From the NCBI GenBank assembly GCA_021325135.1, contig JAJPHT010000029.1, positions 64,001-128,000 on the forward strand: DNA of 64,000 nt, in the 5' to 3' direction. The DNA is from Pseudomonadota bacterium. Its GTDB lineage: Archaea > Thermoplasmatota > SW-10-69-26 > JACQPN01 > JAJPHT01. Below, piece by piece: positions 1-18,106 of the stretch. Below the pieces are notes generated by a model that had not been told where the DNA came from, did no database searches, and saw only the letters and a list, made by a program, of their open reading frames with translations. The translations under genes and the position numbers were made by a program. Every line of letters begins with the position of its first letter. Position 1 is the first letter of the stretch.

Positions 1-2591
1 AGCTGGCGAGCCACCAGCTCATGCAGGGCTCGACGACGCTCCTGGACACGCGCCTGCGCACGCCCTCCTACGGCTCCGCTCCCGGAGAGACCATCGCCAC
101 GTGGTCCACGACGCAGGCCAGCCTCACCCGCGTCCTGCGCGTCGTGAACGGCAGCATCGAGGTGACGTTCACCGCCACCGCGCCCGCCGGCCCCGCGCCC
201 ACCGTGCAGACGGTGTACCTGCGCCACGGCAGCCTCGTGGGCGACACGGTCATCGGCAACTGGACCGGCGGCGCGGCCGCGCCCGCGCTGCGTCTCGACC
301 TGGGCGCCGCCGCGACCACCGTCGCGACGTTCACCACCTCGCCCCTGGCCGGCGCGCGCTGGAGGATCGCCCCCGCGCACCCCGTGGACGCCCGCATGGC
401 GCCCTCCCTGTCTGGTGATATCATCCTCTCGGGCAAGGTCGTCGCCGTCTACCCGGCGAGCTTCGTCCTCCAGGACCGCTCCGGCGCCGCCACGGTCAGC
501 CTGGGCGGCCAGTCCGGCGTCCGCGTGGGCGACATCGCCTACGCGCGCGTCGAGGGCGACGGCAACGGCACGCTCGCGCTCACGGACTACCACGTCACCG
601 GCCACGCCTCCGTCGTCTCCACGCCCGTGGACGCCGCCGGCGCGGCGGCCCTGTTCGCCGCCAACGGCACCATGCTGGTCGACGTCTCGGGCACCGTCGT
701 CTCGCAGAGCGCCAACGCCGTCGTGATCGCCACCGCCACCGGCAACCTCGCGGTCTCCTACGGGAGCGCCGCCCCCGCGGTGGCGCCCGGCGAGCCCTAC
801 GTGGCGCGCGGCGCGCTGACCTCCGCCACGACGCTCCTCTCCGTCCCGCCCACCGTCCGCATCGCCCTCTCGGGCAGCACGTTCGGCCCCTGGTACACCA
901 GCGCCGTGGGCGTCTCCCTGGTGGCGACGGGCGCCGCGTCCACGCAGCTCTCGCTGGACGGCGTCGCGGCGCAGGGCACCAGCGCCACCGCCACGCAGGA
1001 GGGGCTCCACTCGGCCACCGGCAGCGCCACCGACGCGCTGGGCAACGTCGCGCCCATCTCCCGCGCCTTCAGCGTCGACACCGCCGCGCCCACGACGCAG
1101 CTGGCCCTGGTGGGCCCCTCCTACTCGGGCTCCGTCGTGTTCGTGGCGCCCTCCACCACGTTCCGCCTCGTGGCCACCGACGCCGTGAGCGGCGTCTCGG
1201 GCAGCACGCTCTGCGTGCGCGGCTCGTGCGCGCCCTACGCCTCGCCCGTCCCCGCGGGCTCCACCGAGGGCCCGGTCGCCCTCTCGTGGTGGAGCGTCGA
1301 CAACGCGGGCCACACCGAGACGAGCCACGCCAGCAGCGTCACCGTGGACGCCACCGGGCCCGCCGTCGACGCGAGCTTCGCGGGGACCGTGGGCCTCGCC
1401 GGGTGGTGGGTCAGCAACGTGACGGCCACCTTCTCGTGCGACGACGGGGCGGGCTCCGGCTGCGCCTACGTGCAGTATTCGCTGGACAACGGCTCGTGGA
1501 CCACCGCGGGCGCCTCCCTCCTCGTGAAGGGCGAGGCGCGCCACCCGCTGCTGATCCGCGGCGTCGACCGCGTCGGCAACGTGGGCCCCGCGCGCTCCTG
1601 GACGCTCCCCATCGACCTCTACGGCCCCAACATGGGCTGGTCGCTGGCCGGCCCCTTCGCCACGGACGCGCGCGGCTACACCGTCGTGAGCGCCAACACC
1701 ACGCTCCTCCTCGTGGGCCAGGACCGCTTCTCGGGCGTCGCGGGCCTCTGGTACGGCGTCAACGCCGCCGCCTCGCTCCCCTACCCGTCCTCGGGCATCG
1801 GCTTCCCCAACCAGACGGTGAACGAGACGATCTACGCCAACGGGACGGACAACGCCGGCAACGTCGGCCCCACGCTGCGCCTCGACCTCGTCGTGGACAA
1901 CGAGGCGCCCATCGCGAACCTCACCCAGCCGCCGCGCAACTCCGTCACCGTGGACGGCGCGGTCGTCACCCTCGACCCGCCGGGCATCATCGTGGGCGAC
2001 GTGCGCCGCTCGCTGACCGCCGTGCCCAGCGTGGACGCGCGCGGCAGCGCGGTCGTCGCCCGCAGCGTCACGGTGAACCTCACCGCCAACGACCGGCTCG
2101 TGAGGATCGCCCGCGTCGAGTTCTACGTGGACAACGAGACCTCGCCGCGCTACTTCTACGCCCACAGCGTGCCCACGGGCTGGTACACGTGGCTCTGGGA
2201 CGTCTCCACCGAGACGGCCGGCGACCACAACCTCACCGCCAAGGCCTACGACGAGCTAGGCAACGTCGCCGTGATCCGGCGCCTCGTGACCATCGTTGCC
2301 ATCCCGGCCACGTCCGGAGCGCCCGGAAGCGCCAACATGGGCGGCAACATGGTGACCCTCCTCAACGGCATGAACGTCTGCGTGCCGCAGGGCTGGCGCA
2401 ACAACCAGGCGCTCCTCCAGGGGAACATCGCCGACTGCATCCAGAACCTCATCAGCAAGATGACGCCCGTCGCGATGGGCGCCCCCAGCGCGGAGCGCGC
2501 GCCGCCCCGGGAGCCCGCGCCGTCGTCCCCCGACGCGGTGACACCAGATATTTGGCGAAGCAGGCGCGCTCAGGCCGAGGAGTCCCCGTGA
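1..2591 (+). CDS. Large surface/secreted protein, 5'-truncated, with OB-like segments and repeated Ig-like (OmpL47-type) modules
   Basis: Frame is open to the window edge; repeated DxxGN motifs (TDALGNV, VDNAGHT, VDRVGNV, TDNAGNV, YDELGNV); Thr/Ser/Val-rich. Confidence 0.7.
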   Translation, partial: LASHQLMQGSTTLLDTRLRTPSYGSAPGETIATWSTTQASLTRVLRVVNGSIEVTFTATAPAGPAPTVQTVYLRHGSLVGDTVIGNWTGGAAAPALRLDLGAAATTVATFTTSPLAGARWRIAPAHPVDARMAPSLSGDIILSGKVVAVYPASFVLQDRSGAATVSLGGQSGVRVGDIAYARVEGDGNGTLALTDYHVTGHASVVSTPVDAAGAAALFAANGTMLVDVSGTVVSQSANAVVIATATGNLAVSYGSAAPAVAPGEPYVARGALTSATTLLSVPPTVRIALSGSTFGPWYTSAVGVSLVATGAASTQLSLDGVAAQGTSATATQEGLHSATGSATDALGNVAPISRAFSVDTAAPTTQLALVGPSYSGSVVFVAPSTTFRLVATDAVSGVSGSTLCVRGSCAPYASPVPAGSTEGPVALSWWSVDNAGHTETSHASSVTVDATGPAVDASFAGTVGLAGWWVSNVTATFSCDDGAGSGCAYVQYSLDNGSWTTAGASLLVKGEARHPLLIRGVDRVGNVGPARSWTLPIDLYGPNMGWSLAGPFATDARGYTVVSANTTLLLVGQDRFSGVAGLWYGVNAAASLPYPSSGIGFPNQTVNETIYANGTDNAGNVGPTLRLDLVVDNEAPIANLTQPPRNSVTVDGAVVTLDPPGIIVGDVRRSLTAVPSVDARGSAVVARSVTVNLTANDRLVRIARVEFYVDNETSPRYFYAHSVPTGWYTWLWDVSTETAGDHNLTAKAYDELGNVAVIRRLVTIVAIPATSGAPGSANMGGNMVTLLNGMNVCVPQGWRNNQALLQGNIADCIQNLISKMTPVAMGAPSAERAPPREPAPSSPDAVTPDIWRSRRAQAEESP

Positions 2592-4429
2592 TGCCCCGAG
2601 CCTCCAGGATCGCCCCCCTCCTGGCCCTCCTCCTCGTCGCCACCTCCCTCGCCGCCCTGCCTGCGCAGGCCACCGCCGACGACTGCGGGCTCGGGACCGA
2701 CGCGTCCTCCGACGCCTTTGCTCCCTCCGCGGTGACGACGCCCCTGGGCCCGTGCACCGGGAACCTCGGCAGCTCCGACGCGCGGGACGCCTACGGCTTC
2801 CACCTCGACGCGGGGCAGGCCGTGAACGTCACCGTGGGCGCCCCTGCGGGCACCCAGCTGAGCGCGTGCGTCCTAGCGCCCGACGGCTCCTCCCAGGCGT
2901 GCGAGCACCGCGGCGCCGGCGCGACGACGCACCTCACCGAGGTCACCGCCACCGTGGGCGGCACCTACGTCCTCGTCGTCAGCCTCGACAGCGGAGGCGG
3001 GGACTACACCCTGGAGGTCGACGGGCCCTCCGGCGTCCCCGCGCAGGACGACTGCGACCTGGGCACCGACGCGCCCGCCGGCGCCAGCGCGCCCTACCTG
3101 CACCCCGGCCTCTCCTGCGACGGCGCCTTCCCCGAGGGCGACGAGATGGACTCCTACTCGCTGGACCTCCACCGGGGCGACACCGTCACCGCGACCATGA
3201 CGCGCGACGCCAACTACCCCACGATCTGCCTGCAGTCCCCCACGGGCGGCCTCACGTGCGACATGCCCGCGCTCAACCACACGGGCCTCGTGGGCGCCAC
3301 CGTCCAGGTCAGCGGCCAGTGGTCCCTCTACCTCTACGTGGACCCCGGCATCGTCTCCTCCTACCACCTCAACGTCACCCTCGCGCGCCCCGCCGCCGAC
3401 GACTGCCGCACCGGCGGCGACGCGGGCGACGACGCCGCGCACGCCAGCCGCGTCTTCACCCCCATGAACCGCTGCGAGGCCGAGCTGGCCTCCTCCGAGA
3501 CGCAGGACTGGTACGCCTTCAACGCCACGAAGGGCGACCCGCTCTCGGCCTCCGTGCAGGACGGCCCCTTCGTGGGCGCGACCCTCTGCCTCTTCGCCCC
3601 CGCCGCCTCCACGCCCGCCGCGTGCGCGAGCGCCGGGACCGGCGCGCAGGCCTCCCTCGCCCTCAACGCCACCGCCACCGGCGCGTGGCGGGCGCGCGTG
3701 CAGCGCGACTCGGGCGCGGGCTTCTACTCCCTCTCCCTGGTGGACCACCGCGCGGGGATGTTCAACGACCCGCCCGTGCTCCGCCTTCTCACCTGCGATC
3801 CCGGGCCGCACCTCGTGAACCAGGCGTTCACGTGCACGCTCATCGGGCACGACGACGGGCCCCAGGTCTTCTACACGTGGACCTACGGCGACGGCCGCTC
3901 GGGCCTGACCGCCGCCAAGGCGCCTGGCGATCCCGCCCTCGTGACGGTGCGTTACTCCGCCGCGGGCTCCTACGTCTTCCGCGCGCGCATCTCCGACAAC
4001 GACCTGCGCGGCCCGCCCACCTCGGAGTCGGGCAATGAGCTGACCATCACCCTCGTCGTGGGTCCCGGCAGCAGCGCGGCCACCTCGTGGAACGCGACCC
4101 TCGCCACGCCCTCCGTGGCGGCGCATCTCCAGGACCAGGCCTCGCGCCTCGCGGGCTACCGCGGCCCCACGCTCTCCGTCTACGCCGGGCAGGCCAGCTT
4201 CCCGCTGGATCGCCCCGCCGCGGGCGGCGAGGCCGTCAGCCTCTCGTGGACGCAGCCCGCGGACCTCGACGTCCTCTTCCAGGACTCGCAGGGCCGCGCG
4301 CTGCCCGGCGGCTGCGCGACCTCGGGCCTGGGCAGCGCGGAGTCGTGCGTGGCCCCCGCGGGCGCGCGCTTCCTCGTGGTGCGGCTCGCCACGGGCGCGG
4401 TCGCCGACTTCGGCCTCAAGCTGGGCTGA
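2591..4429 (+). CDS. Secreted protein with three PPC-like repeats and a PKD domain
   Basis: ATG overlaps the upstream stop (TGATG); signal peptide MPRASRIAPLLALLLVA; repeats DDCGLGTDA/DDCDLGTDA/DDCRTGGDA; PKD-like TWTYGDG. Confidence 0.75.
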   Translation: MPRASRIAPLLALLLVATSLAALPAQATADDCGLGTDASSDAFAPSAVTTPLGPCTGNLGSSDARDAYGFHLDAGQAVNVTVGAPAGTQLSACVLAPDGSSQACEHRGAGATTHLTEVTATVGGTYVLVVSLDSGGGDYTLEVDGPSGVPAQDDCDLGTDAPAGASAPYLHPGLSCDGAFPEGDEMDSYSLDLHRGDTVTATMTRDANYPTICLQSPTGGLTCDMPALNHTGLVGATVQVSGQWSLYLYVDPGIVSSYHLNVTLARPAADDCRTGGDAGDDAAHASRVFTPMNRCEAELASSETQDWYAFNATKGDPLSASVQDGPFVGATLCLFAPAASTPAACASAGTGAQASLALNATATGAWRARVQRDSGAGFYSLSLVDHRAGMFNDPPVLRLLTCDPGPHLVNQAFTCTLIGHDDGPQVFYTWTYGDGRSGLTAAKAPGDPALVTVRYSAAGSYVFRARISDNDLRGPPTSESGNELTITLVVGPGSSAATSWNATLATPSVAAHLQDQASRLAGYRGPTLSVYAGQASFPLDRPAAGGEAVSLSWTQPADLDVLFQDSQGRALPGGCATSGLGSAESCVAPAGARFLVVRLATGAVADFGLKLG

Positions 4430-8766: not shown

Positions 8767-8885
8767 GCCTGGGGCTGCCGGGAACGCCCCCCTTGAACGG
8801 GTCCAGACGCAGAGCCCGGATCGGCAATCGGCATCAAACAACCCTAAGTAGGGGCGATCCCGTCGAGCGGCTGGAGGATAACAAC

Positions 8886-9098
8886 ATGAGTCGAACCGCG
8901 ATTCTCCTCGCCCTTCTTGCCCTCGCCTCGTTGACCCCCCTCGCCACGGCGGAGATCACCCCCCAGTCCGACCTGCTGAACCCCACCTTTGTCCTGGGCA
9001 AGGGTCCCTGCAGCAGCGCCGACGACTGCTGCCCGCTGGACCCCACCTACTACGTGACCCACCCCTACGGCGTGACGAACAACTGCCAACAGGCCTGA
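8886..9098 (+). CDS. Small secreted Cys-rich peptide (70 aa, 4 Cys)
   Basis: GGAGG RBS; signal peptide ending ATA; mature EITPQ...PCSSADDCCPLD...NNCQQA. Confidence 0.75.
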   Translation: MSRTAILLALLALASLTPLATAEITPQSDLLNPTFVLGKGPCSSADDCCPLDPTYYVTHPYGVTNNCQQA

Positions 9099-9114: not shown

Positions 9115-10596
9115 ATGACGCCCGCGCCGGTCCGCCTCCTGGTCCCGCTCGCCCTGGCTGCCCTCCTCAGCCTCGGCGCCGCGTCGGCCAGCAGCGCGAT
9201 TGACGCGGGCGTCGCCTACGTCCAGGTCCAGGACTCGCGGGGGTCGGAGTGCGGCTCCCCCGTCCCGGACGTCTGCGCGGCCTCCACGCACGTCGACCCC
9301 GCCTCTCCGGGCGAGTCCACGGTGGACGCCTACCAGCGCATCGACTACGTCGGCGTCGCCACCAACCCCGACGGCGCCGGCATCCCCGTTTCCTCTCTTG
9401 GGCTCCCGGTCCCCGACGAGTCCTACACCGTCCACGGCAGCGACCTCTACGTCCGCGAGCCCTTCGTCCGCTTCGCGACGGAGCGCTGGCAGGACGTCTC
9501 CTCCCACCTCCCCGGCACGCCCGCCTACCTCCACATGGGGAGCGACGGCGTGGGCCTCCACTACGACGGCCCCAGCCCGTGGGACCCCAGCACCAGCGGG
9601 CCCCAGGCCGTGGGCTTCGACTATTCCCACGGCCAGGGCGTCGGCTACGAGCAGGTGGGCCCCGTGAACGCGCCCACCGGCACCAGCACCGACGAGGACG
9701 CCACCGGCTGGGAGACCGAGGTCTGCGACCCCGCCGACGCCACCTGCCACGGCGTCGCCCAGGGCTTCCGCGAGGCCTCGCCGAACGCCACCTGGGGCCT
9801 TGAGATCTACGACCTCCAGGCCGCCTCCAACCGCAGCGCGCTCACGGGCCCCGTCGCGCCCCATCTCGCCGCCGCCCCCGCCGCCCCGGCGGCGCCCGCG
9901 CCCGCCCCCCTTGTGGCGGCCGTTCCCCCCAGCCCCGGCGCCATCCCGCCGGCCGTCCACGCCCGCGCCGACGCCCCCGCGCCCTTCGCCGCCCGCGCGC
10001 CCCCCGCCCCGCGCGACGAGGGCGCGAAGGTCCTCGCCCGCGCCTCGGCCGGGGTGGCTCCCCCCTCGGCGCTGCGCGACCTCGCCGTCGCCGTGGCCGG
10101 CGGCGCCGTCCTGGCCGCGATCTTCAGCTCCCTCTACAACCGCTTCACCACCCGCGCCGAGGTCCTGGAGTCGGACGTCCGCGCGAAGCTCCTCCAGCTC
10201 ATCGGCGAGCGGCCGGGCATCTGCATCTCCGACGCCGTCCCCAGCCTGGGCATGACGCGCAACGCCGTGCTCCACCACGTCCGCATGCTGGCCCGCGCCC
10301 GCGTCATCGTCGTCGTCACCGAGGAGGGGCGCAAGCTGCTCTACCTCCCCGGCACGCAGCCGCAGCAGAGCCCCCTTCCCCCTGCCCTCCTGCGCCACCC
10401 CGTGCGCGGCGCCCTCCTCGCCGCCCTGCGCGAGTCCCCCGGCGGCATGACGCGCGACCAGGTGCACCAGCTGCTCTCCCACGTCCCGGAGCGCACCCGC
10501 AACTACACCATCGCCAGGCTCGCCGAGCGCAACATCATCCAGCAGCGCGCCGGGCCTGCAGGCGAGGCGATGCTGGTGCTCAACGAGGCCCCCTGA
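9115..10596 (+). CDS. Membrane-tethered transcription regulator: ectodomain, Pro/Ala linker, TM, tandem winged HTH
   Basis: Signal peptide; TM LAVAVAGGAVLAAIFSSLY; wHTH VLESDVRAKLLQLIGERPG...LGMTRNAVLHHVRML; second HTH after HPVRGALL. Confidence 0.8.
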   Translation: MTPAPVRLLVPLALAALLSLGAASASSAIDAGVAYVQVQDSRGSECGSPVPDVCAASTHVDPASPGESTVDAYQRIDYVGVATNPDGAGIPVSSLGLPVPDESYTVHGSDLYVREPFVRFATERWQDVSSHLPGTPAYLHMGSDGVGLHYDGPSPWDPSTSGPQAVGFDYSHGQGVGYEQVGPVNAPTGTSTDEDATGWETEVCDPADATCHGVAQGFREASPNATWGLEIYDLQAASNRSALTGPVAPHLAAAPAAPAAPAPAPLVAAVPPSPGAIPPAVHARADAPAPFAARAPPAPRDEGAKVLARASAGVAPPSALRDLAVAVAGGAVLAAIFSSLYNRFTTRAEVLESDVRAKLLQLIGERPGICISDAVPSLGMTRNAVLHHVRMLARARVIVVVTEEGRKLLYLPGTQPQQSPLPPALLRHPVRGALLAALRESPGGMTRDQVHQLLSHVPERTRNYTIARLAERNIIQQRAGPAGEAMLVLNEAP

Positions 10597-14630: not shown

Positions 14631-14837
14631 AATCGGGATTCAGCGTTGGACGAACAAGGGTATCTCGCCACGGGGAGTCCTTCCCTTGCCGAGACGGCGC
14701 GACGGTCGACCTCGCCTCAGAAGCCTCCTCGCTCCAAATCGTGGGGCCGACTGACGCTCGCCTCGACAGGCCTCCTGCGCCTGAAGCCAGTTCCGGGACC
14801 CGACAAGCGGGTCGTGGGAACCCGCCATCCGCAAGCC

Positions 14838-14875
14838 CCGCGATGCCTCCTGGGGGATTATGGGAGGCATCGCGG
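14838..14875. repeat. 13-bp perfect inverted repeat (hairpin)
   Basis: CCGCGATGCCTCC-N12-GGAGGCATCGCGG. Confidence 0.8.
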
Positions 14876-14945
14876 TGGGTGGCGTCCTTTTTGTGACCTT
14901 GGTGACAAGCGCGCGCTTTCACGCCGCGGGGCGGCTCTTTCGCCC

Positions 14946-15665
14946 ATGGCCGGGAGACGCGCGCGGATGCCCTGGTCGCGCGAGCCCGCGGAGCCCGAGC
15001 AGGTCGCGCCGCCCGCGCCGCCCCTTCCCCGCCCCCCGGCGGCTCCCCACCACTGGCTCACCGTCCTCGTCGCGCGCCCTGGCCCCGAGGGTCCCCTGCC
15101 CGTGGCGGACGCGCGCGTCGTCATCCGCCCCTTCCCCCTGGGCGCGCCGAAGCCCGGAGAGCCCATGGCGCGCGCCGCCACCGGCCCCGAAGGCACCGTG
15201 GCGCTGCTCCTCCCCGCGGGTCGCTACGCCGTGAGCGCGCGCCATGCGGGCGAAGGCCGCGCCGTCACCGTCACGCTGGAGCACGCGGGCCGCGCGCTCC
15301 TGGTCCTGGAGGCCTTGGGCAAGCGCGTCGTCCTCACCGTGGAGGTCAGCGGCCCCGACGGAGGTGCCTTGCCCGGCGCGCCCGTGGAGGTGCGCAGCGC
15401 GCCGGCCGGCACGCTCGCCGCGCGCGGCGCGACCGACGAGCGCGGCGTCGCCACGCTGCACCTCCCCCCGGGCGCCTACGAGGTGCGCGTCGGCGCGGCC
15501 CGGGCGCGCACGTTCGTGGAGACGGATACGCTGCTGCGCCTCGCGGCCGAGGCCGCGCCCGCGCCGCAGCCGGTGGCCAGCCGCTACGCGCAGAAGGCGC
15601 GCGCCGCCACCAGCTACGTCGCCCCCTTCAGCGCCGAGCACGTGCGCGACGACGTGTGGAACTGA
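14946..15665 (+). CDS. Carboxypeptidase regulatory-like domain protein (two repeats)
   Basis: TGPEGTVALLLPAGRY and TDERGVATLHLPPGAY repeats. Confidence 0.7.
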   Translation: MAGRRARMPWSREPAEPEQVAPPAPPLPRPPAAPHHWLTVLVARPGPEGPLPVADARVVIRPFPLGAPKPGEPMARAATGPEGTVALLLPAGRYAVSARHAGEGRAVTVTLEHAGRALLVLEALGKRVVLTVEVSGPDGGALPGAPVEVRSAPAGTLAARGATDERGVATLHLPPGAYEVRVGAARARTFVETDTLLRLAAEAAPAPQPVASRYAQKARAATSYVAPFSAEHVRDDVWN

Positions 15666-15671
15666 GGAATG

Positions 15672-17135
15672 CTATCGCCGCTCCGTCGCGCGCCTCGCGT
15701 CGCGGACCGCCTGCTGGACGCGGGGCTTGGCGCGCAGCTCGCGGTACTCGTCCTCCTCCTCGATCTCGAAGACCATCTCGGGGCTCTTGCGCAGCGCGGC
15801 CACGATGGCGCCTTGCGCCTCGTCTGAGGAGGAGTCGAAGCGCAGCAGGAGGCGCGCGAGGAGGATCTCGCCTTCGCCGTCGTCGCCCGCCTCGGCGGCG
15901 CGGCGGTAGGCGTCCAGCGCCTCGTCCACGCGGCCGGAGGACTCCAGGATGGTGCCGCGGTCCGCCAGGAGGCGCGGGTGGCGCGGCACCATGGCGAGGG
16001 CCTGCGTGTTCCAGTCCAGGGCGAGGCCCCACGCGCCCTGCTCGATGGCGCGCTCGGAGAGGTCCATGCACTGCTCCACGGTGAGGCCCGGCCTGCGCGC
16101 GAAGCGGCGGACGCCCCACGCGGCCGCGCCCGCCGCCAGCACCGTGCCCCCCACCAGGAGGGCGGCGGTCGCGGGGAAGGGCGACCCTTCGGGAGAGGCG
16201 GGGGCGTAGCGCACGCCCGCGACGGCGGCGTCCCCCTCGATGCGCAGCACGGCGTCGGTCTGCCCCGCGTCGTCCTTCGTGGCGGTGAGGCTCCCTGCGA
16301 GGCGCCCCACGAGGCGCGTGGGCCCGTCGGTGACGCCCTGCTGGTCGCCCACCTGGAGCTGGCCCCCGGTGGCGTCCGCGCCCACGGCGCCGCACTGCGC
16401 GAGGAGGACCTGCGTCGAGGCGGCGGCGAGGGGCACGCGCGTGTCCAGGGTGAGCGACGCGTTGCGCATGGTGAGGGTGGCCCAGGAGTCGTGGTACTGG
16501 CCCAGGGGCCCCGCGTCGCCGGTGCGCCCCGTGTCCACGAAGGAGAGGTTCTCCCGCGCCTGGAGGGAGAGGTTGAGCCCCTGGAGCTTCACGACGAGGT
16601 CGCCGTCGAGGCGCACGCGCCCCCCCACCTCGTAGGCCAGCGTCGGGCCCAGCACGCGCAGGGCGAAGTAGTTCGCATCGGGCTGGGGCGCCGCCTCGGG
16701 CGTCACGCTGTCCATGCCGACGATGGTCTGCGCGAGGGGGCTCCACGAGACGTTCCCCGCCTCCAGGGGATGCAGGCTGGTCCCGGGCGCGTCGTACACG
16801 CCCATCCAGCCGTCGGGCCAGGGCGCGAGGTCGCGCAGCGAGCCGCGCACGTCGTGGACCTCGTAGCTGCGCTCCTGCATGGGCTGGTTGGGCGGCGTCA
16901 CGATGAGGCTGCCCACGCGCTGGTTGGCCTTGTCGAACCAGTCGACGTCCACCGTGGAGGCGGTGAAGGTCCAGGAGCGCAGCCCCTGGAACCCGCCCAC
17001 GTAGGCCGCCTGGGGGTGGGCCGTGAAGAGGGCCTCGTCCGCGTCGGCGTGCCGGACCGTGAGGGTGCCCGCGACGCTCGCCGCTGATCCCGTGGGGACC
17101 AGCAGGACGAGGAGCAGCACCGCCCAGGCCTTCAC
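15672..17135 (-). CDS. Single-pass membrane receptor-like protein with cytoplasmic TPR domain
   Basis: Signal peptide; beta-rich ectodomain; TM followed by RRFARR; TPR helices (RGTILESSGRVDEALDAYRRA). Confidence 0.75.
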   Translation of the reverse strand: MKAWAVLLLVLLVPTGSAASVAGTLTVRHADADEALFTAHPQAAYVGGFQGLRSWTFTASTVDVDWFDKANQRVGSLIVTPPNQPMQERSYEVHDVRGSLRDLAPWPDGWMGVYDAPGTSLHPLEAGNVSWSPLAQTIVGMDSVTPEAAPQPDANYFALRVLGPTLAYEVGGRVRLDGDLVVKLQGLNLSLQARENLSFVDTGRTGDAGPLGQYHDSWATLTMRNASLTLDTRVPLAAASTQVLLAQCGAVGADATGGQLQVGDQQGVTDGPTRLVGRLAGSLTATKDDAGQTDAVLRIEGDAAVAGVRYAPASPEGSPFPATAALLVGGTVLAAGAAAWGVRRFARRPGLTVEQCMDLSERAIEQGAWGLALDWNTQALAMVPRHPRLLADRGTILESSGRVDEALDAYRRAAEAGDDGEGEILLARLLLRFDSSSDEAQGAIVAALRKSPEMVFEIEEEDEYRELRAKPRVQQAVRDARRATERR

Positions 17136-17219
17136 GGGCCGCGCATCCCCGGATTCACGCTTGGCGTTTCCCGTCGCCGGGCCACCCAATCCGGCCCGGC
17201 TCCCGGGGCGCTTGCGGTT

Positions 17220-17252
17220 TAGTCTGGAGATTGCCTCGCGATATCCAGACTA
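17220..17252. promoter_or_regulatory. Candidate operator palindrome in a divergent promoter
   Basis: TAGTCTGGA-N15-TCCAGACTA with further pairing inside the spacer. Confidence 0.55.
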
Positions 17253-17303
17253 TCGCGGCGGCCCTATCGCGGCGCGAGGAGCGGAGGGCGCGAGGTTCCC
17301 ACC

Positions 17304-17483
17304 TTGCGACCTTCGACCCTTGTGATGCTGGCCCTGTCCCTCTGCCTCGTCGGCCTCGGCGCGGAGCCCGTGGCCCTCGCCGACCCCTCGGACCTGCCTC
17401 CCCAGGACACGCCCTGCGTCTCCGTCAACGCGAGCGTCTTCCCCCCGGAGATCCACGAGGCCCCCTGCCCCGTCCTCGGCTGA
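17304..17483 (+). CDS. Small secreted peptide (59 aa, missed by the ORF track)
   Basis: GAGGT RBS, TTG start: MRPSTLVMLALSLCLVGLGAEPVALA-DPSDLPPQDTPCVSVNASVFPPEIHEAPCPVLG; high GC3. Confidence 0.65.
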   Translation: MRPSTLVMLALSLCLVGLGAEPVALADPSDLPPQDTPCVSVNASVFPPEIHEAPCPVLG

Positions 17484-17527
17484 AGGCAAGGACAGCCTTC
17501 ATGCGAGGGGCGGCCCTTCGGCCCGGC

Positions 17528-18106
17528 ATGGCCTGGTTCGACGGCGGCGCCGTGGAGACGCTGGCCCGCGCGGGGGGCGCGCTCGCCTCCTCCGCCCTTC
17601 TCCTGGGCCGCCGCCCCCTGGGGCCCGAGCGCGTCCTGGAGAGCCCGGTCCGCCAGCAGATCCTCGCCCGCGCGCGGGCGACGCCGGGCCTCTCGCTCAT
17701 GGAGCTGCGCCGCGTCATGGGGCTGGGGTGGGGCAACCTGTACCACCACCTCAAGCGCCTGGAGAAGGCGGGGCTCGTGGAGACGCGCGCCGCCGGGCGG
17801 CAATGCCTGGTGTTCCCCACGGGGAGCCGCGGCACGGAGTCGCACCAGCGCGCCTCCATGCTGCGCGGCGCGACCGCGCGCTGGGTCGCGGGCTACGTCC
17901 TCGCGCACCCAGGCTGCGACTTCGCGGACCTGCTCAAGGACGCGCCCGTGGAGCAGCGCACCGTCTACTACCACGTCCAGCGCCTCCAGCGCGCGAAGCT
18001 CATCCGCGCCGGCAGCCGCAGCCGCTACTTCGACCTGCGCCCCGCCGACGACCTGGCGGACTGCCTCGCCCGGGTCACCCCGGGTGACCAGGGCCCAAAG
18101 GCTTGA
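17528..18106 (+). CDS. Tandem winged-HTH transcriptional regulator
   Basis: VLESPVRQQILARARATPG...LGWGNLYHHLKRLEKAGLV; second HTH RTVYYHVQRL. Confidence 0.85.
   Translation: MAWFDGGAVETLARAGGALASSALLLGRRPLGPERVLESPVRQQILARARATPGLSLMELRRVMGLGWGNLYHHLKRLEKAGLVETRAAGRQCLVFPTGSRGTESHQRASMLRGATARWVAGYVLAHPGCDFADLLKDAPVEQRTVYYHVQRLQRAKLIRAGSRSRYFDLRPADDLADCLARVTPGDQGPKA

Follow-up and report, generated by a model that had tools for sequence, protein, structure and literature searches.

Introduction

The RRNPP regulators (Rap-Phr, PlcR-PapR, NprR, PrgX, and AimR), which occur in Bacillota and phages, are cytosolic receptors that bind a re-imported peptide through five to nine repeats and usually carry a helix-turn-helix (HTH) domain of their own. 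In the SdpC/SdpI/SdpR system of Bacillus subtilis, a membrane protein has been proposed, according to a summary of the system (Ellermeier et al. 2006, in PMC2910880), to bind the exported peptide and to sequester an ArsR-type autorepressor, resulting in derepression. Transmembrane transcription regulators (TTRs), such as ToxR/ToxS, TcpP/TcpH, and CadC, have been surveyed as well (PMC10269533). Here, a cassette that resembles each of these systems in part was analyzed in a window of 64,000 nt, which is the whole stretch of DNA under study and lies on contig C33 of an archaeal genome (3.77 Mb, 71.6% G+C, 51 contigs). The cassette consists of a receptor gene on the minus strand, which is divergent from an open reading frame (ORF) for a 59-aa protein with two cysteines on the plus strand, followed on the latter strand by the gene of a regulator with tandem winged HTH (wHTH) domains; a palindrome is located between the divergent genes. 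All four elements had been pointed out in an initial annotation of the window, and each of them was found in place.

Apart from two-component systems and a small number of membrane-bound regulators, little is known about how signals are transferred from the outside of archaeal cells to transcription. The cassette described here may be a lineage-specific, repeatedly duplicated, and kinase-free relay of three proteins of the SdpC/SdpI/SdpR type, a reading to which we give an even chance. The exported hairpin protein would close its disulfide and dock on the ectodomain of its own receptor, and this occupancy would change the receptor so as to make its cytoplasmic tetratricopeptide repeat (TPR) tail either retain the regulator or set it free, for which the conserved N-terminal helix of the regulator is the likely handle. 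The free regulator would bind the palindrome over the only TATA-like stretches of both promoters. By repressing or adjusting the receptor gene as well as the hairpin-regulator operon, the bound regulator would complete a feedback loop.

Results

Recurrence of the gene trio and its fused relatives

A tblastn search of the source genome revealed approximately 10 receptor paralogues and more than 50 tandem-wHTH paralogues, and a profile of the receptor ectodomain gave 11 matches in the same genome. A divergent ORF encoding a signal peptide and a Cys loop adjoined the receptor gene at eight of the nine loci examined there (C33, C11, C7, C19a, C19b, C46, C42, and C45), and the same hairpin ORF was detected at eight loci of relatives (L011, L012, L013, L015, L016, L017, L020, and L139), which comprised four genomes (G001, G002, G003, and G007) from two genera. 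Among approximately 23 receptor loci inspected, 16 kept both the position of the hairpin ORF and its motif, C-Φ-x-Φ...PP...C. The strict hairpin pattern had 11 matches genome-wide, four of which were beside receptor genes (approximately 0.4% of the genome). The tandem-wHTH gene followed the hairpin ORF on the same strand at five loci of the source genome (C33, C11, C7, C19a, and C46) and at seven loci of the relatives (L011, L012, L013, L016, L017, L020, and L139). A wHTH gene also flanked receptor homologues in more distant genera and at loci where no hairpin ORF was detected. These results bear out the linkage of the three genes that had been assumed in the initial annotation: the trio recurs as a unit, and both the location of the small ORF and its Cys-loop motif are conserved.

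Two relatives encode the sensor and the wHTH pair as one protein. The fused forms, ORF 1360-3054 (+) of locus L148 in genome G003 and ORF 1276-3129 (+) of locus L140 in genome G005, are composed of a signal peptide, the cassette ectodomain (profile E values of 5e-15 and 1e-14, respectively), a transmembrane (TM) helix, and a tandem wHTH; the C-terminal part of L148 matched the wHTH family with an hhalign probability of 99.3% (E 8e-21). Since relatives join both in one chain, the sensor domain and the wHTH family appear to be functionally tied. The TPR domain of the split receptor occupies the place that the wHTH pair has in the fused form, which singles it out as the obvious part by which the separate regulator might be held. 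Juxtamembrane stretches of fused forms (LPLYTRL, LPMYSRI, and SSLYNRF) resemble the sequence hydrophobic-P-L/M-L/M-G-R at the N-terminus of several split regulators.

The cassette had previously been taken for the split version of another gene of the window, which encodes an ectodomain-TM-tandem-wHTH regulator (9115-10596). This likeness held for the DNA-binding part, as the C-terminal part of the 9115 regulator was 28% identical to the cassette wHTH over 134 aa (BLASTP, E 4e-7), but not for the ectodomains, whose homology was rejected (hhalign probability of 0.1%). Judged by these comparisons, L148 and L140 are the true fused counterparts of the cassette, whereas the 9115 gene is a parallel case from a separate lineage and not the fused ancestor. 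Four full-length paralogues of the 9115 regulator are encoded in the genome, and a gene for a four-Cys exported protein of 71 aa (8883-9098) is located directly upstream of it.

Receptor and its domains

The features of the cassette are listed in Table 1.

Table 1. Positions of the cassette features in the window.
Feature	Position	Strand	Description
Receptor gene	15672-17135	-	487 aa from GTG 17135; signal peptide, ectodomain, one TM helix, and cytoplasmic TPR
Ectodomain	16191-17087	-	Residues 17-315; all-beta with very long strands; no family or fold match
TM helix	16101-16169	-	Residues 323-345 (AlphaFold2 and family alignment); followed by RRFARRP, positive-inside
Cytoplasmic TPR domain	15678-16079	-	Residues 353-486; three repeats and capping helices
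Candidate operator	17220-17252		33-bp near-perfect palindrome, TAGTCTGGAGATTGC-ctc-GCGATATCCAGACTA; overlaps both TATA-like boxes
Second repeat set	17237-17274		CGCGATA (17237-17243) and TATCGCG (17251-17257) inverted; CTATCGCGGCG direct (17250-17260 and 17264-17274)
Shine-Dalgarno-like GAGGT	17292-17296	+	Spacing of 7 nt to the TTG start codon of the small ORF
Small exported protein	17304-17483	+	59 aa, TTG start; signal peptide 1-26, mature part of 33 aa
Tandem-wHTH regulator	17528-18106	+	192 aa from ATG 17528 (201 aa if from 17501)

The receptor ORF spans positions 15672-17189 of the minus strand, and its translation likely starts either at GTG 17135 (MKAWAVLLL..., a classical signal peptide) or at the alternative TTG 17189, which adds 18 aa. 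The GC content at codon positions 1, 2, and 3 was 0.75, 0.52, and 0.97, respectively. The AlphaFold2 model obtained with 20 homologues had a predicted local distance difference test score (pLDDT) of 87.6 and showed a cleavable signal peptide, an all-beta ectodomain (residues 19-310), and the TM helix and TPR domain within the limits given in Table 1. A Pfam scan of the receptor returned TPR models and BTAD, and nothing else.

When the ectodomain was modelled alone, the pLDDT was 91.4 and the predicted template modelling score (pTM) was 0.87. The ectodomain had zero matches in Pfam, template modelling scores (TM-scores) of 0.14 or less in a Foldseek search, and no usable fold match through the ESM Atlas; its best Z score against 48,161 PDB chains in VIA-align was 3.7, where models without a true match usually reach 7-8. 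The ectodomain profile collected 553 clusters at 50% identity among 1.84 billion proteins, including 235 at E <1e-30. Among the best 149 of the 553 clusters, a TPR tail was found in 145 and a wHTH in none, as determined with local hidden Markov models. In GTDB species genomes, the profile matched 19 of the 21 genomes of the host class, compared with 3 of the 180 sampled from the rest of the phylum; the ectodomain is nearly confined to one class of Thermoplasmatota. Scans of public genome contigs and metagenome contigs gave no close relatives of the receptor; a receptor orthologue among public proteins (P0002) was 51% identical. The mean identity was 20% for the ectodomain, 33% for the TPR domain, and 32% for the wHTH, and the fastest divergence of the ectodomain fits the expectation for a specificity domain.

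The TPR tail, which had been recognized in the initial annotation from the sequence alone, was confirmed by structural superposition to be a three-repeat TPR of the peptide-clamp type. The Pfam TPR models matched it with E values of 7e-5 to 7e-3, all under the cut-off (best score of 23.7 bits versus 32.7), and the family consensus retains the A/G/P positions. The model of this domain was superposed on TPR1 of HOP (1elw) with a Z score of 15.3 and a root-mean-square deviation of 2.2 Å over 114 residues, and further structural matches were the peptide-clamp TPRs of Sti1, CHIP, Sgt2, and PP5; since helical repeats reach high Z scores easily, these matches speak for the fold and for a format typical of peptide binding, but not for a particular ligand.

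A gene with CarboxypepD_reg-like beta-sandwich repeats (14646-15665, +) is convergent with the receptor gene, and the stop codons of the two are 6 nt apart. Small genes for single winged-helix-like proteins (60-140 aa, ...HVHPLLNRLR...GLV...) are located just downstream of several receptor genes, mostly in convergent orientation (C11:14990-15175, -; C19:466-783, -; C45, L029:2502-2831, +; C35, L030:4294-4707, -; C42, L031:4255-4500, -); none is present at the window copy.

Small exported hairpin protein

On the basis of its coding signature, Shine-Dalgarno (SD) site, conserved position, and motif, the small ORF is a real gene, and its product is exported through the Sec system. The GC content at codon positions 1, 2, and 3 was 0.73, 0.51, and 0.93, respectively, which is like that of genuine genes of the genome, and GAGG(C/T)T was found at an equal spacing before the hairpin ORFs of three paralogous cassettes. 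The long frame 17231-18106 was rejected as the regulator gene because of its codon-position GC (0.83, 0.71, and 0.58) and the starts of the orthologues. The small ORF had been described at first as hidden and as having two mature cysteines; the ORF and the cysteines are real, but it is not truly hidden, since it is called as a 52-aa protein from an internal ATG in a public protein collection (P0153). This call from the same genome was the sole match in a protein search for homologues.

The protein carries a Sec-type signal peptide that ends in ALA before D. C14 is within the signal peptide, and the mature cysteines are C38 and C55. The loop between them, CVSVNASVFPPEIHEAPC (17415-17468), reads C38-VSVNASVFPPEIHEAP-C55, and the consensus across hairpin proteins was C-Φ-x-Φ-x(2-6)-P-P-x(3-8)-C, with CVYVDWSQSPPQVYTAPC of G001 and CVKISPFDVPPVSVYDC of G003 as further examples. 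A loop closed by the predicted disulfide would argue for an action outside the cell rather than inside. The window copy represents the short form of the protein, which is composed of a signal peptide and a hairpin of 30-40 aa. About half of the cassettes encode a long form of 130-150 aa, in which a domain of approximately 100 aa precedes the hairpin. This domain has the conserved pattern W.P...Y.VYG...GY..Y.V.A..G.ES, which is absent from the window copy, and it showed a weak match to Pfam fn3 (E 0.04 in one of nine members) as well as weak profile matches in PDB to the Fn3 domain of RIM-BP (E 0.007) and to tenascin and FN3con (E 0.1-0.3). Short and long forms were interspersed, without clustering, on the star-like receptor tree.

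N-x-S/T sequons were observed in several of the Cys loops (NAS at 17427-17435 in the window, NIS in L024, and NWS and NTS in L012), and the loop may be N-glycosylated. Many hairpin or Cys-rich exported proteins end with hydrophobic residues and L/V/I-P (VVLP, TAVLP, and LVGLP; for example, C23:16319-16963, C30:547-1206, C47, and C39). A C-terminal LP was found in 3.1% of signal-peptide-like proteins versus less than 1.7% of others, which is a weak trend.

Tandem-wHTH regulator

The regulator matched the Pfam families HTH_20 (49.2 bits; cut-off 27) and HTH_HVO_0163_N (49.1 bits; cut-off 31), with two stretches matched, and HTH_5 (ArsR) at 24.2 bits, which is also above the cut-off. Three orthologues (P0155-P0157), with identities of 73-75%, begin with MAW..., and the N-terminal segment is conserved in them; ATG 17528 is therefore probably the start codon, not 17501. 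Ahead of the first wHTH, the N-terminus has a conserved helix and the motif LLLGRRPLGPER, which is invariant in the orthologues, and this segment is almost invariant among regulator orthologues of 65-75% identity.

The N-terminus was also considered as a TM anchor, which was rejected because its hydropathy is too low in most copies. The best 19-residue value of the window regulator was 0.09, scored over residues 1-20 up to the early 'PG', and the stretch ALASSALLLG is, by eye, too short for a TM helix. The TM helix of the 9115 regulator scores 2.02.

Palindrome and the divergent promoters

The palindrome was originally reported as TAGTCTGGA-N15-TCCAGACTA with 9-bp arms, which is exact in the sequence. 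It is longer than first noted: the arms of 15 nt (17220-17234 and 17238-17252) match at 13 of 15 positions and are separated by a spacer of 3 nt. The second repeat set overlaps its right side. When the 200 nt upstream were shuffled 60 times, two of the shuffled sequences contained a repeat of equal quality, and the palindrome taken alone is only moderately unlikely to have arisen by chance. The 9-mer half-site occurs three times in the genome, namely in the two arms and inside a tRNA gene; extra half-site copies as a regulon were rejected, since the sole other copy is the one within the tRNA gene.

Over 690 roughly called genes of the genome, an A+T-rich peak was found 25-45 nt before the start codons (boxes at approximately 27 nt), together with a separate SD signal at -12 to -9, which suggests that the mRNAs of this archaeon are a mixture of leaderless and SD-led transcripts. 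The sole octamers with at least five A/T in the 170-nt intergenic region of the cassette lie in the arms of the palindrome. In view of the genome-wide peak and these octamers, the arms are the natural candidates for TATA boxes. TTTAG is 29-33 nt from TTG 17189 and would make the receptor mRNA leaderless, and GATATCC predicts a plus-strand start near 17270 with a leader of approximately 35 nt bearing the SD site. The predicted 5' ends thus fall near 17189-17195 (minus strand) and 17268-17275 (plus strand). Occlusion of the promoter is the usual mode of repression in Archaea, and a protein on the palindrome would occlude both divergent promoters.

Gibbs sampling of the cassette promoters yielded a shared motif, approximately TTTCACAnGAATCTCCA, which was rejected as cassette-specific because approximately 70 copies are present in the genome, mostly before genes for exported proteins. 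The genome-wide motif of 17-20 nt, ATTTCACAAGAATTCTCCA, has the core TTCACA-N-GAAT-N-CTCCA and is partly palindromic (AATTC-N4-GAATT). Most of its approximately 70 copies (for example, C37:6208, C19:2455, C45:66875, and C46:87970) precede a gene for a signal-peptide protein by 20-140 nt, most cassettes being among these cases, and the motif appears to be a site at which a regulon-wide factor acts on genes for exported proteins. The window copy is weak (17224-17243, -) and makes up one palindrome arm together with the centre.

Host genome

The genome originated from a soil metagenome assembly. PurM, encoded near the cassette, was 52-57% identical to proteins of metagenome-assembled genomes named 'Thermoplasmatota archaeon', and a Cdc6/Orc1 gene is present on contig C45. 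Both findings identify the host as an archaeon of the Thermoplasmatota that has not been cultured. Soil orders with high G+C have been described in Thermoplasmatota (PMC9287336). In four runs of a mine metagenome from 2024, contigs of approximately 200 nt matched pieces of the receptor gene and of its promoter with full identity (within window positions 15831-17229), which indicates that the same or a very close strain lives outside the source soil. Beyond these identical pieces, the four runs gave just short unrelated matches and zero sequence variants.

Discussion

The initial annotation had joined the exported peptide, the receptor, and the transcription factor into a three-part circuit. 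The recurring unit, the conserved small ORF, the tie between sensor and wHTH, and the clamp fold of the TPR domain were upheld; a ligand that is a peptide only, an operator common to the family, and the 9115 gene as the fused version were not.

Several observations weigh against the relay proposed here. An adjacent tandem wHTH is missing at the receptor copies C19b, C35, C42, and C45 of the source genome, and no hairpin ORF was detected at the receptor loci C35, L014, L018, and L019. The distance matrices of receptors and regulators correlated weakly (TPR versus wHTH, r 0.21, p 0.14), and with such weak correlations and a star-like receptor tree, a signal of co-evolution was not upheld. No inverted repeats above those of shuffles were found in 14 other cassette promoters, and the palindrome was not alignable with the promoter of the G001 relative (L013). 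The operator that had been claimed thus stands as a palindrome in the shared promoter of the window copy, to which it is unique, but not as a family-wide operator, which was rejected. The genome-wide motif, present in all cassette promoters, may mean that another regulator controls them. In addition, the Fn3-like long forms of the hairpin protein fit a docking partner no less well than a diffusible pheromone and point more to a docked subunit than to a free signal.

The last point leads to the main rival explanation, in which the hairpin protein is not a signal but an external subunit bound constitutively to the receptor, as ToxS is for ToxR or TcpH for TcpP, with the relay from TPR to regulator kept. 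The input would then come from elsewhere, with envelope damage, redox acting on the disulfide, or a polymer as candidates. Half of the partners are proteins of 130-150 aa with an Fn3-like domain, as would suit a subunit; the hairpin gene always adjoins the receptor gene under a shared divergent promoter, giving matched production; and no hairpin ORF was detected near the fused forms L148 and L140. Set against this, the short forms are bare hairpins of 30-40 aa, which fits a free ligand, and the many fast-diverging paralogous pairs resemble orthogonal sets of ligands and receptors. We consider the co-receptor unlikely on balance, although it is the alternative to be taken most seriously.

The relay itself might be absent. 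The receptor and the hairpin protein would then form a surface structure, for adhesion or envelope assembly with the TPR domain as a scaffold, next to a wHTH that is just a local autorepressor, and the palindrome would be a pair of mirrored core promoters. The palindrome does hold the sole TATA-like stretches, so that mirrored promoters could give part of its symmetry; its lack of conservation in the other cassettes and the four receptor copies without an adjacent tandem wHTH agree with this explanation. However, the fusion of ectodomain and wHTH in two relatives argues for a relation of sensor and output, and the identity of the arms at 9 of 9 positions exceeds the need of a generic TATA box and B recognition element (BRE), with the 9-mer found elsewhere just in the tRNA gene. 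Such an arrangement is improbable, and less likely than the proposed mechanism. Also less likely than that mechanism, and very improbable, is a toxin-immunity pair, in which the hairpin is an antimicrobial peptide (archaeocin) and the receptor serves to neutralise it and also, through retention of the regulator, to induce its own synthesis. The layout of exported peptide, membrane protein, and ArsR-type regulator is that of SdpC/SdpI/SdpR, and conflict systems typically have numerous diverged copies in a genome. However, no SdpI-family, other immunity, or exporter domain was found in the Pfam scans, the receptor has one TM helix and an ectodomain of 300 aa, an Fn3-like domain is unusual for a toxin, and there are no linked maturation or export genes.

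Within the sequestered-regulator relay, which we favour over these alternatives, the cassettes could further be orthogonal channels of cell-to-cell communication in Archaea, in which each diffusible peptide or protein is read by its own receptor and the TPR domain releases a dedicated regulator. We regard this extension as quite unlikely; if it were true, Archaea would have their first peptide quorum-sensing-like system, with a new sensor fold and without kinases. If the relay alone is true, the logic of the sequestered repressor known from SdpCIR and anti-sigma factors would extend to Archaea, and it could reveal peptide signalling in abundant uncultured soil archaea. The cassette provides a concrete model of three proteins, with a sensor without a known fold, a hairpin of 33 aa that can be synthesised, a TPR domain of 130 aa, a regulator of 190 aa, and a candidate operator of 33 bp. 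The split and fused forms and the approximately 10 diverged paralogues per genome constitute a natural matrix of cognate versus non-cognate specificity.

No description of the cassette was found in literature searches that covered HVO_0163, membrane-bound regulators of archaea, and archaeal RRNPP systems. Among described systems, SdpC/SdpI/SdpR shares with it a nearby gene for an exported peptide, a membrane protein, an ArsR-type wHTH encoded beside the latter (HTH_20 and HTH_5 above cut-off), and the lack of a kinase, and the autoregulation of the Sdp system is proposed for the cassette as well. The two differ in that SdpI has six TM helices, whereas the Pfam scan and the single TM helix place the cassette receptor outside the multi-pass SdpI family; the receptor instead combines a beta ectodomain of 300 aa with a TPR tail. 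The receptors and ligands of both systems have no sequence or domain relation, and the cassette has a tandem-wHTH regulator, approximately 10 copies per genome, and an archaeal host.

With the RRNPP systems, the cassette has in common a gene for a TPR-type receptor beside a small gene for a pro-peptide with a signal peptide, which is here conserved beside the receptors, and the presence of many paralogous cassettes per genome; PlcR was also among the structural matches of the TPR domain (2qfc, Z 12.7). The cassette receptor, however, is not a soluble cytosolic protein, as it has a signal peptide, an ectodomain, and one TM helix, and in place of at least five TPR-like repeats fused to an N-terminal HTH, it has three repeats and a cap, with DNA binding assigned to a separate gene. 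Its TPR domain is tethered behind the TM helix and the large ectodomain, and a ligand with a disulfide loop is unlikely to work inside the cell.

The TTRs resemble the cassette in the outside sensor, the single TM helix, the winged-helix output, and, often, a small gene for an exported or membrane partner. The fused L148 and L140 and the 9115 regulator of the window, in which the DNA-binding domain and the TM helix are in one chain, belong to this type in the sense of the survey (PMC10269533). In the cassette, in contrast, the DNA-binding protein is separate and soluble, and the TPR domain replaces the wHTH on the receptor. The topology is also reversed compared with ToxR, as the sensor is N-terminal and the DNA-binding part C-terminal, and the wHTH pair is of the ArsR/HVO_0163 type, not of the OmpR type.

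Anti-sigma factors and their extracytoplasmic function (ECF) sigma factors provide a further parallel, in which a single-pass membrane sensor holds a transcription factor until a signal arrives and the pair is co-located and autoregulated. To our knowledge, Archaea have no sigma factors; the cassette has no anti-sigma domain, and the protein held would be a wHTH repressor or activator. The logic of the cassette thus has bacterial precedents in the Sdp, anti-sigma, RRNPP, and TTR systems, and what appears to be new is the receptor, the hairpin family, the split arrangement with a TPR domain in place of the wHTH, and the occurrence in Archaea.

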